Source: Bacteroidales bacterium
GTDB lineage: Bacteria; Bacteroidota; Bacteroidia; Bacteroidales; UBA932
Assembly (NCBI GenBank): GCA_016287875.1
Contig: JAEEXQ010000005.1
Location: forward strand, 5,909 to 69,908
Reading direction: 5' to 3'
Length of the DNA stretch: 64,000 nt
Shown here: piece after piece, positions 5,738 through 7,727 of the stretch
Position numbering within the stretch: position 1 is the first letter of the stretch
Layout: each line of letters opens with the position of its first letter
The notes under the pieces: generated by a model
Told to the model about the DNA's origin: nothing
Databases searched by the model: none
Seen by the model: the letters and a program-made list of their open reading frames with translations, nothing else
Translations under genes and position numbers: made by a program

Positions 5738-6932
5738 TGCCGAATTCCTCCTGATGCGCGCCGTAATATACCCTCAGAGGGGTGGAGAGCAGCTTTATGA
5801 AGCCCTTGGCTTCTTCTGCGGTCCAGCCCTTCTGGCTCTCGCCGTATTCTCCAAGCTTGGATGCCACCAGGTCGTCGGGGGAATCGACGCCTACGGTGGA
5901 GAAGGACCAGGGCCTGAGTTCCAGGCTGACGGTGCCGTTGACGTTGCGCTGGCTGCTTTCGAGCATAGCCTCGATATCCCTCATTACGGGTTCGAGATAC
6001 TGGCTCTCGTGCAGGAACATCCCGTACCAGTTGGCAACCTGGTCTTTCCAGTACTGCTGCCATTTGCTGAGGGTGAACTTCTCCAGGAACTTGTGGGCTC
6101 CGATGATAAGCATTGGAGCCGCAGCCTCGAATCCGACACGGCCTTTGATGCCGATGATGGTATCTCCGACGTGCATGTCGCGGCCTATGCCGTAGGCGGC
6201 GCCTATCTTTTCGACGGCGTTGATGGCCTCTATCTTGTCAGCGTACTTCTTGCCGTTCACGCTGCAGAGTTCTCCCTTTTCGAATCCCAGGGTGAGAATC
6301 TCGCTGCCCTTCTTGGAAATCTGCTTGAGGTATGCGCTCTCGGGCAGGCCCTGCTTGGAATCGAGAATCTCTCCTCCGCAGATGGAGGTGCCCCAGATAC
6401 CCACGTTGTAGGAGTATTTCAACTTGGCGAAATCGGCCGGGAAGCCGTGGGCGTTGAGGTAGTCGATCTCTTCCTTGCGGGAGATGTTGCCGTCGCGGGT
6501 GAGGGTGATTATCTCCATCCCGGGGCACATCACCAGGAAGGTCATATCGAAACGGACCTGGTCGTTGCCTGCGCCGGTGGAACCGTGGGCGATGGCGTCG
6601 GCGCCTATCTCCTTGGCATACTTGGCAATCGCCATACCCTGGAAGATGCGCTCCGACGACACCGATATGGGATAGGTGCCGTTACGCAGCACGTTGCCAT
6701 AGACCATATATTTGAGACTCTTCTCATAGTACTCCTTGGTGACGTCCAGGGTGACGTAAGCCTTCGCGCCTAGCTTGTAGGCGTTCTCTTCGTTCTGCTT
6801 GAGCTGCGCTGCGGAAAAACCGCCCGTGTTGGCGCAGGCCGCATAAACTTCGTATCCCTTTTCCTTGGCGAGATACATTACCGTATAGGAGGTGTCGAGC
6901 CCTCCGCTATATGCTACTACTACCTTTTTCAT
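5730..6932 (-). CDS. argG: Argininosuccinate synthase (start reassigned to MKKVVVAYSGGLDTS at 6932)
   Basis: AYSGGLDTS, AHGSTGAGNDQVRFD and IKGRVGFEA motifs; TAATG overlap with the upstream GNAT. Confidence 0.96.
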   Translation of the reverse strand: MKKVVVAYSGGLDTSYTVMYLAKEKGYEVYAACANTGGFSAAQLKQNEENAYKLGAKAYVTLDVTKEYYEKSLKYMVYGNVLRNGTYPISVSSERIFQGMAIAKYAKEIGADAIAHGSTGAGNDQVRFDMTFLVMCPGMEIITLTRDGNISRKEEIDYLNAHGFPADFAKLKYSYNVGIWGTSICGGEILDSKQGLPESAYLKQISKKGSEILTLGFEKGELCSVNGKKYADKIEAINAVEKIGAAYGIGRDMHVGDTIIGIKGRVGFEAAAPMLIIGAHKFLEKFTLSKWQQYWKDQVANWYGMFLHESQYLEPVMRDIEAMLESSQRNVNGTVSLELRPWSFSTVGVDSPDDLVASKLGEYGESQKGWTAEEAKGFIKLLSTPLRVYYGAHQEEFGND

Positions 6933-7492
6933 TATTCTCCGGGATGATGGATTTCCAAATGCTCCTTGGGGTCGAACAGCAGGCCGGTGCAGAGGCAGAG
7001 CCTGTATTCGTTGCGTGTGAGTATGTCGAAGTTGCGGCAGCCCTGGCAACCTTTCCAGAATTCGGGATCGTCGGTCAGTTCGGCGAAGGGAACCGGACGG
7101 AATCCGAATTCATAGTTCATCTTCATGACCGCTGCGCCCGTGGTGATCGAAAAGATCTTGGCATCGGGGAAAAGGGTGCGGGAGAGGATGAAGGTCTGCT
7201 CTTTGATGCGTTTGGCAAGGCCCAGCCCGCGGAATTTGTGGGCTACGATGAGGCCGGAATTGGCGACGAAGGATTTGCCGCCCCAGCTTTCGATGTAGGA
7301 AAAGCCTGCGAATTCGCCGTTTTCGGCGACGGCTATCACCGCTTTGCCTGCGAGCATTTTCTCCTGGATGTACTCCGGAGAACGTTTGGCGATACCGGTC
7401 TTGCGTTCAAGTGATGAAAGGTAAATCTCGTTGCAGATGTCTTCTGCGAAACCAACGTGGCTTTCATTAGCCACCACTACTTCTATTTCCAT
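6932..7492 (-). CDS. GNAT family N-acetyltransferase heading the arg operon (probable ArgA-role N-acyl-glutamate synthase)
   Basis: GNAT motif A (VAHKFRGLGLAKRIK); resembles the GNAT that precedes argG in Bacteroidales arg operons. The ArgA role is inferred. Confidence 0.75.
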   Translation of the reverse strand: MEIEVVVANESHVGFAEDICNEIYLSSLERKTGIAKRSPEYIQEKMLAGKAVIAVAENGEFAGFSYIESWGGKSFVANSGLIVAHKFRGLGLAKRIKEQTFILSRTLFPDAKIFSITTGAAVMKMNYEFGFRPVPFAELTDDPEFWKGCQGCRNFDILTRNEYRLCLCTGLLFDPKEHLEIHHPGE

Positions 7493-7581
7493 TTATTATT
7501 TATCTGGCGTCGGTTGTCGGGCCGGATACGTAATATCCCTAATGGCAAGACAAACCGAGATTGTCAATTGCAATTATTAGG

Positions 7582-7652
7582 CGGAAATTCCGAGGAAAAA
7601 TATGTAGAATTTCCGAAGATATTTGGGAGGGTTCTACGCCTCCTATCTTCGG
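7582..7652 (-). promoter_or_regulatory. Mutually exclusive hairpins of a putative arg attenuator
   Basis: Perfect 9-bp stem 7652-7644/7621-7613 (inner 7643-7639/7630-7626) overlaps the last Arg codons and the stop. A second perfect 9-bp stem 7615-7607/7590-7582 shares bases 7613-7615. Confidence 0.55.
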
Positions 7653-7687
7653 GCTCGTCTGCTGTTATGAAGTGAGAATGCGGACAT
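7643..7687 (-). CDS. Putative arginine leader peptide MSAFSLHNSRRARR (14 aa)
   Basis: ATG at 7687, 8 nt after a TATATTTG box. Last codons AGA CGA GCC CGA AGA TAG. 150 nt upstream of the first arg gene. Confidence 0.7.
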   Translation of the reverse strand: MSAFSLHNSRRARR

Positions 7688-7695
7688 GTTGGATG

Positions 7696-7727
7696 CAAAT
7701 ATAGGTAGAATAATTCTTATTTGCAAA
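7696..7727 (-). promoter_or_regulatory. Bacteroidetes sigma70-type promoter of the arg leader/operon
   Basis: TTTG (7727-7724), 20-nt spacer, TATATTTG (7703-7696); matches the -33 TTTG / -7 TAnnTTTG consensus. Confidence 0.75.

Follow-up and report, generated by a model that had tools for sequence, protein, structure and literature searches.

An Arg-codon leader ORF and a near-invariant hairpin precede an arginine biosynthesis operon in an ArgR-less Candidatus Cryptobacteroides genome

Arginine synthesis is the textbook case of control by the ArgR repressor, and attenuation by leader peptides has been described for the trp, his, leu, thr, phe and ilv operons. Leader peptides have been reported in Proteobacteria, Actinobacteria and Firmicutes (PMC2965389). 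For the arginine biosynthesis genes, the literature searched yielded no leader peptide, attenuator or riboswitch, and as of 2017 validation of an arginine riboswitch in nature was still lacking.

The leader described here belongs to an arginine operon of the Bacteroidota. It has in common with the classical attenuators (trpL, hisL, leuL, thrL, pheL, ilvL) a short leader ORF that is enriched in cognate codons and overlaps conserved hairpins. It differs from them in the amino acid and the phylum concerned, in an ORF that is probably almost leaderless, and in the presence of an extra invariant hairpin, called P3 below. Furthermore, its hairpins are not mutually exclusive and no U-tract terminator follows them, whereas a complete terminator/antiterminator set is found in L172, a leader from another member of the family. 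Because both exclusive hairpins and an intrinsic terminator are missing, it is not a plain classical attenuator.

The closest published case of Arg-codon sensing is orf34 of Salmonella speF (speFL in E. coli), where ribosomes that pause at Arg codons when arginine is low bring about an alternative mRNA structure, and where the output relies on Rho and an RNase, with no intrinsic terminator (PMC6386406). The likeness lies in pausing at Arg codons of a leader ORF, which at the present locus is inferred. The speF system differs in that it controls ornithine decarboxylase and has two Arg codons within a conserved peptide of 34 codons; it has no sequence similarity to the present leader and no P3-like hairpin. 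The leaderless polycysteine short ORFs of mycobacteria (bioRxiv 10.1101/834739) are likewise leaderless or nearly so, rich in cognate codons and attenuate a downstream operon, but they concern cysteine, occur in another phylum and have no conserved RNA module. Repression by ArgR at ARG boxes, which is the common form of control in Bacteroides and is also found in many genomes of the window's own genus, acts on the same operon with the same presumed signal. It differs in that a protein repressor acts on DNA, as opposed to a cis-acting RNA and ORF.

The leader and its predicted structure

The window, which is the whole stretch of DNA that was analysed (64,000 nucleotides), comes from a Candidatus Cryptobacteroides genome (family UBA932) of 2.18 Mb, 97.5% complete and with 56% G+C. 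The leader is the cis-regulatory region of a GNAT-argGCDB-(argE-like)-argH-carA operon. The initial annotation had remarked on the lack of an adjacent argR, and a search of this 97.5%-complete genome found neither the N-terminal nor the C-terminal domain of ArgR. The leader contains no ARG box, and the locus does not have the features of an ArgR/ARG-box operator. A gene for Rho is present; the gene for CsrA is absent. The features are as follows, all on the minus strand and in window coordinates.

7696-7727, minus strand: Bacteroidota-type promoter (-33 TTTG at 7727-7724, 20 nt, -7 box TATATTTG at 7703-7696)
7643-7687, minus strand: leader ORF of 14 codons plus stop, MSAFSLHNSRRARR, read from the sequence, with its ATG at 7687 and Arg codons AGA 7660-7658, CGA 7657-7655, CGA 7651-7649 and AGA 7648-7646
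7613-7652, minus strand: hairpin P1ext+P1, which includes the two final Arg codons and the stop, with compensatory variants in relatives
7582-7615, minus strand: hairpin P2, 7615-7607 with 7590-7582, of which CGG (7615-7613) is common with P1ext
7537-7581, minus strand: extended P3 (P3ext), in which CCUAAU (7581-7576) pairs with AUUAGG (7543-7538)
7545-7571, minus strand: hairpin P3, near-invariant in relatives and missed by the initial annotation, made of GCAA 7571-7568, a UU bulge 7567-7566, GACAA 7565-7561, the loop UCUCGGU 7560-7554, UUGUC 7553-7549 and UUGC 7548-7545
7537-7544, minus strand: conserved 3' box of P3ext, CAUUAGGG (7544-7537)
7524-7538, minus strand: small hairpin GGAUA/UAUCC, found in the window's subclass only, where it replaces the U-rich tail of most relatives
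6932-7492, minus strand: GNAT-family N-acetyltransferase of 186 aa, the first structural gene, its family name taken from an NCBI cluster member

The GNAT gene is followed on the same strand, in one long operon, by argG, argC, argD, argB, an M20 deacylase gene, argH and carA. The promoter is as the initial annotation had described it, with TTTG, N20 and TATATTTG on the minus strand and the ATG 8 nt later. Transcription usually starts a few bases downstream of the -7 box; if it does so here, the leader mRNA is almost leaderless. The -33 TTTG overlaps the last codons of the upstream gene for a CstA-like transporter (stop 7719-7717), and read-through from this gene into the leader is possible since no terminator lies between them.

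The 14-codon Arg-rich ORF was likewise recovered at the positions first proposed for it. Its end reads AGA CGA GCC CGA AGA TAG (stop 7645-7643), so Arg accounts for four of the last five sense codons, an enrichment in cognate codons of the kind seen in leader peptides. No Arg codons are rarer in the host genome than CGA (5.9%) and AGA (5.8%).

Two perfect 9-bp stems had been proposed downstream of the Arg codons, and both exist on the minus strand. In the first, P1ext, CCGAAGAUA (7652-7644) pairs with UAUCUUCGG (7621-7613). In the second, P2, CGGAAAUUC (7615-7607) pairs with GAAUUUCCG (7590-7582). The two minor pairings suggested alongside them are also complementary. What had been missed is that P1ext continues inwards into the P1 core GGAGG/CCUCC (7643-7639 with 7630-7626), so that a 14-bp hairpin results, with the stop codon at its base. 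In one of the minor pairings, GUAGAA of the P1 loop can pair with UUCUAC, with which the P2 loop begins (7604-7609 with 7632-7637); the P1 loop sequence CGUAGAA(C/A) is conserved in the window's class of leaders (class R, below), while its partner in the P2 loop is not.

The 155-nt leader folds with a z-score of -2.65, and three of 200 shuffled sequences fold equally well. Relatives of the window's class support the stems. For P1ext, the mean duplex energy is -8.2 kcal/mol against -2.3 in shuffled sequences, with 35 of 47 leaders clearly above their shuffles; for P2 it is -9.7 against -4.5 kcal/mol (26 of 47). In an alignment of 39 sequences, 97.5% of cells are paired, compared with 38-59% when the partners are slid. 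Six pairs are changed on both sides, a number matched in none of 500 shuffles, and P2 has such changes at four of its eight aligned pairs. Compensatory variants of P1ext/P1 include CCGAAGGUA/UACCUUCGG in leader L157 and GAGUGU/ACACUC in leader L116. P1ext, P1 and P2 are conserved in relatives with compensatory changes.

The proposal that the two stems compete is not supported, any competition being marginal. They overlap by only 3 nt (CGG), and both are present in the minimum-energy fold, where P1ext (less two pairs), P1, P2 and extended P3 all coexist. When a ribosome footprint is masked over the Arg codons, the predicted fold opens P1ext/P1 and completes P2, but leaves P3ext unchanged. In the window no antiterminator overlaps a terminator, and P2 and P3ext do not overlap. 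The classical 1:2 / 2:3 / 3:4 logic is therefore not demonstrated here, because neither stem overlaps a terminator. The minimum-energy fold of the window also suggested that the P2 region masks the GNAT start by pairing with it; this was rejected, since none of 47 leaders beat their shuffles.

The leader ORF and ArgR across the family

Comparison of the regions upstream of GNAT in relatives brought P3 to light, and a search for the P3 element gave 119 distinct loci among the matches listed. The short Arg ORF, whose conservation had been in question, is kept in 106 of these 119 leaders (among the matches listed), where it ends in C-CGA-NNN-stop. The C-CGA is in frame in all 106, two codons 5' of the stop; one CGA is part of the definition of the class. 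The ORF stops at the 5' edge of the GGAGG hairpin or nine bases later, inside the hairpin loop. From the end of a perfect TAnnTTTG box to the in-frame ATG the distance is 6-11 nt, most often 8, in 94 of the 106 leaders. The frame is maintained despite changes in length, and the spacing from promoter to ATG is fixed.

The leaders fall into three classes. Class S has an ORF of 11 codons (in a few cases up to 30), MxxxGxIFVRL-stop, with only one Arg codon and with the hairpin 36 nt 3' of the stop. Class R, to which the window belongs, ends in SRRARR-stop or SRRDRR-stop and has P2 inserted. Class L has an ORF of about 30 codons with an internal VRR and the C-terminus LVR(L/I)-stop. Arg codons are kept in relatives, but the run RRxRR is confined to one subclass, and the universal feature is the single in-frame C-CGA. 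A single switching logic for all three classes was considered and rejected, since P1 competes with P3ext in class S and not in class R.

Codon use in the ORFs is skewed. Arg makes up 15.1% of leader codons, compared with about 5% genome-wide. CGA provides 62% of the leader Arg codons and AGA 20%, together 82% against 11.7% genome-wide; when the one CGA per leader that belongs to the class definition is excluded, CGA provides 37% and AGA 33%. Other positions vary synonymously: Leu at -4 is encoded by CUA, CUC, UUA or CUU, Phe by UUU or UUC, and the second Arg codon also changes synonymously among leaders. The variation at Leu and Phe has the apparent signature of a translated frame.

The codon 5' of CGA follows another pattern: it always begins with G and ends with C, but its middle base varies, so that the residue is V, A, D or G. 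The fixed G-N-C before CGA shows an extra RNA-level constraint outside the stalling model set out below. As a separate observation, in the box G-N-C-C-G-A (window 7652-7660, and positions -9 to -4 from the stop in all related leaders) only position 2 varies, which alters the amino acid. A C always precedes CGA throughout the family, and neither coding nor any one helix accounts for this constraint.

In 13 of the 119 leaders (among the matches listed), P3 is retained and the Arg ORF is absent. In L005, L053 and L059, the hairpin begins about 15 nt past the -7 box, and a different ORF of 11 codons, MQLTISVCLAL-stop, runs across P3. In L010, L094 and L143, P1 and a downstream hairpin persist and CGA has been lost.

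The distribution of ArgR was examined in one draw of 401 genomes of the family, the same draw that was searched for P3. GNAT is present in 290 of these, ArgR in 48 and the P3 hairpin in 23, once in each genome; a reversed control of the P3 element gave 0 matches. Within the window's own genus (56 genomes), 18 carry the P3 element but no ArgR, 24 carry ArgR but no element, none has both and 14 have neither; no p-value is attached to these counts, since genomes that are related do not count as independent observations. In this genus the leader element and ArgR exclude and replace each other. In the relatives that possess ArgR, argR lies immediately upstream of GNAT or divergent from it.

A further 40 regions upstream of GNAT were taken from ten other genera, all of them ArgR-negative. 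In 29 of the 40, covering nine of the ten genera, a TAnnTTTG box is followed after a short gap by a mini-ORF with at least two Arg codons. It typically ends in (H)V-R-R-stop or VRRCA-stop, with C-CGA again present and a following Arg codon whose third base varies synonymously. The occurrence of the mini-ORF in nine other genera indicates that it is family-wide and probably ancestral. The P3 hairpin was found in none of these 29 leaders and is a lineage-specific addition.

Some of these leaders carry terminators. L172 (G420:C68:5650-6150) and L176 (G344:C42:27850-28345) encode MFTGNHNNRRCLSF and MEQTTNNCRRWLAL, respectively, and each ORF is followed by a canonical terminator made of a hairpin and a run of seven T; both belong to another genus of the family and have no ArgR. 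In the predicted fold of L172, a CUUGCC...GGGCAAG hairpin forms ahead of seven U when the leader is free of ribosomes or when a ribosome sits at the stop codon; only a ribosome holding CGA in its A site allows an antiterminator to capture the 5' arm of the terminator. As modelled, L172 is a textbook terminator/antiterminator Arg attenuator. In L203 and L204, the stop codon lies within the 5' arm of a hairpin that is followed by six U.

Other arrangements also occur. In L167-L171, L175 and L205 (genera g19 and g40), an ArgR-negative GNAT-arg operon has neither a leader ORF nor a hairpin, and the GNAT ATG comes almost directly after the promoter. The genome G170 (genus g36) has two GNAT copies, L026 (C62:1-1115) and L188 (C60:46859-47350), one with the invariant-hairpin leader and the other with a g36-type leader (MKTIGSIFSSQSRIRR), possibly owing to duplication, transfer or bin contamination (3%).

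The P3 hairpin and the output step

By comparison of the related leaders, P3 is the most conserved part of the leader. The near-invariant element (window 7571-7537) reads GCAA-UU-GACAA-UCUCGGU-UUGUC-UUGC and continues with C(A/G)UUAGGG. The host genome has a single copy, the element is present in at least 119 GTDB species, and the GNAT-arg operon lies 8-180 nt 3' of it in 118 of 119 distinct loci (among the matches listed).

A metagenome scan in which the loop was left free returned at least 119 hits, with 105 distinct contexts among the matches listed. In those 105 contexts the loop is always UCN(C/A)GGU: U, C, G, G and U occupy positions 1, 2, 5, 6 and 7 without exception, position 3 varies freely, and position 4 (position 15 of P3) is C or A only. 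The triplet that begins there is therefore always CGG or AGG, both of which are Arg codons. A metagenome scan for any variant with a base other than U at the first bulge position found none, while the second bulge base may be U, C or G. Ten of the 12 stem pairs never vary, and there is almost no covariation. As in a riboswitch, bases in the loop and bulge are invariant, while the flanks and downstream parts differ among classes. Searches of Rfam gave no match in the leader, even at E values up to 10. The flanks of P3 show compensations in some relatives (GUCCC/GGGAC, CGAGG/CCUCG, GCCC/GGGC and CCUCA/UGAGG). P3ext as a universal helix was rejected: its mean energy is -5.9 kcal/mol against -4.4 in shuffled sequences, and only nine of 99 leaders are clearly above their shuffles.

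The bulge of HIV TAR and the ASM3 of 7SK share a secondary structure, the 'arginine sandwich motif' (PMC6189040). P3 of the window has the same local structure, namely an A-U pair (A7568-U7548), a 2-nt bulge led by U (U7567 U7566), a G-C pair (G7565-C7549) and an A-U pair (A7564-U7550). In both TAR and P3, the second bulge base is the sole variable position on the stem side. P3 differs in being bacterial, and its loop, lower stem and 3' box have no counterpart in TAR. The likeness is at most a structural lead.

Several other readings of P3 were tried and rejected. A kissing interaction between the loop (UCGG) and the CCGA box shows no covariation, and variants with an AGG loop keep CCGA. A T-box-like reading does not match the UGGN signature, and in a K-turn reading the G.A pairs are missing from the opposite strand. 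Binding of CsrA to two GGA motifs was dismissed because the CsrA gene is absent. There is no conserved neighbouring regulator gene either, since the upstream genes vary among loci.

The sequences that follow P3ext differ among the leaders. Classes L and R have a U-rich tail 3' of P3ext (for example UUUAUUGU; 5-7 U out of 9), which class S and the window's subclass lack. The window has GAUAUUACG (3 U out of 9) and the GGAUA/UAUCC hairpin instead, and no hairpin with a U-tract terminator exists in its leader, in agreement with the first reading of the sequence. The 57 nt between P1 and P3 contain 28% C and 9% G in the window, where they are largely base-paired in the predicted fold, and 30% C and 11% G across classes L and R. 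Termination at P3ext and its U-rich tail is the probable output in most relatives. Since this tail is missing in the window, its output may be Rho-dependent termination or may depend on a factor that recognises and acts on P3.

Mechanism and alternatives

The interpretation we favour, with a probability of about 0.7, is that the mini-ORF senses charged tRNA-Arg through ribosome stalling at rare Arg codons, which favours expression of the operon. Transcription would begin a few nucleotides 5' of the 14-codon ORF, and the ORF would be translated, with CGA decoded by an I34 tRNA-Arg via I:A wobble and AGA by a minor UCU tRNA. When charged tRNA-Arg is scarce, the ribosome would stall on the Arg codons and occupy the 5' arm of P1ext/P1, giving a leader conformation that permits continued transcription or expression. 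When arginine is ample, the ribosome would terminate and depart, P1ext/P1 would refold and the operon would be attenuated. Stalling would probably report arginine shortage, given that the usual ArgR repressor is absent.

This interpretation builds on the ORF, its codon bias and conservation, the helices and the exclusion of ArgR, all of which are observed; from them we infer that ribosomes stall, in which direction the operon responds and how the output arises. Arginyl-tRNA-sensing attenuation, as the initial annotation had it, is in part supported, by the conservation of the ORF and its codons and by the ArgR pattern, but exclusive hairpins and an intrinsic terminator are missing in the window. 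Its sensor half, the Arg-codon ORF, is well supported by the comparison of relatives. Its switch half, the competing stems, is weak. Further points against it are the single Arg codon of class S, the fixed G and C of the codon before CGA, and the 13 leaders in which P3 persists and the ORF does not.

It is unlikely that P3 is instead the primary sensor, binding a trans factor for termination or stability, with the ORF as an inherited accessory input. Candidate ligands are free arginine, which would bind at the TAR-like bulge, and tRNA-Arg, which would recognise the CGG/AGG triplet of the loop, besides an RNA-binding protein and the Arg-rich leader peptide. Such a role would agree with the strong conservation of the hairpin and its single copy per genome, with five of seven loop bases and the first bulge base remaining constant even in searches that left them free, and with its persistence where the ORF is missing (13 leaders). 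It is also, in classes L and R, the upper part of the hairpin that precedes the U-rich tail. However, nine other genera control the same operon with an Arg ORF and no P3, which makes P3 an add-on. The invariance of 10 of its 12 stem pairs leaves almost no covariation, no candidate binding protein is encoded nearby, and CsrA is absent. An arginine-specific form of this idea, with P3 as a TAR-like aptamer or as a dock for tRNA-Arg through CGG or AGG, in tandem with the ORF, is by analogy conceivable and we consider it quite improbable. The bulge A-[U,N]-G-A / U-C-U has the form of the arginine sandwich motif, and the restriction of loop position 15 to C or A keeps an Arg codon in the loop; on the other hand, the resemblance to TAR is local, the UGGN signature of T-boxes is unmatched, and the binding of free arginine to TAR is weak (millimolar), which counts against P3 as an arginine sensor. 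If it were true, the operon would respond to free arginine as well as to charged tRNA-Arg, with no protein regulator involved.

Two explanations dispense with arginine sensing by the RNA. In one, the leader is a conserved 5' UTR that exerts no control specific to arginine and serves, for instance, to stabilise the mRNA or, through its short ORF, to boost downstream translation, in which case the Arg codons would be a by-product of an RNA-level constraint (CCGA pairing with UCGG). The G-N-C-CGA box is indeed conserved as nucleotides rather than amino acids, CCGA pairs with UCGG within P1ext, and the window has no terminator. This is nevertheless very unlikely in view of the exclusion of ArgR, the strict linkage to the arg operon, the additional Arg codons with synonymous third positions that lie outside the box over ten genera, and the textbook Arg attenuator predicted in L172. 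Least plausible of all is that the inverted repeat TTGACAA-N7-TTGTCTT is the DNA operator of a repressor that has replaced ArgR. The repeat is palindromic, near-invariant, single-copy and operon-linked, and one symmetric change (GCAA/TTGC to GTAA/TTAC) has been found. Yet it always lies 100-200 nt 3' of the promoter, on one strand and past the ORF, its 'spacer' is conserved as strongly as its half-sites, its flanks covary like an RNA helix, and no linked regulator gene was found.

P3 offers a sharply defined object of 27 nt that is directly testable for the binding of arginine, tRNA or protein. The either/or pattern of ArgR and the leader element inside one genus is a natural experiment in the replacement of one regulatory system by another. 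An entire family of abundant rumen and gut Bacteroidales appears to have exchanged ArgR for a ribosome-sensing mini-ORF, and this exchange falls in a phylum without Shine-Dalgarno initiation and on a transcript that is probably almost leaderless.
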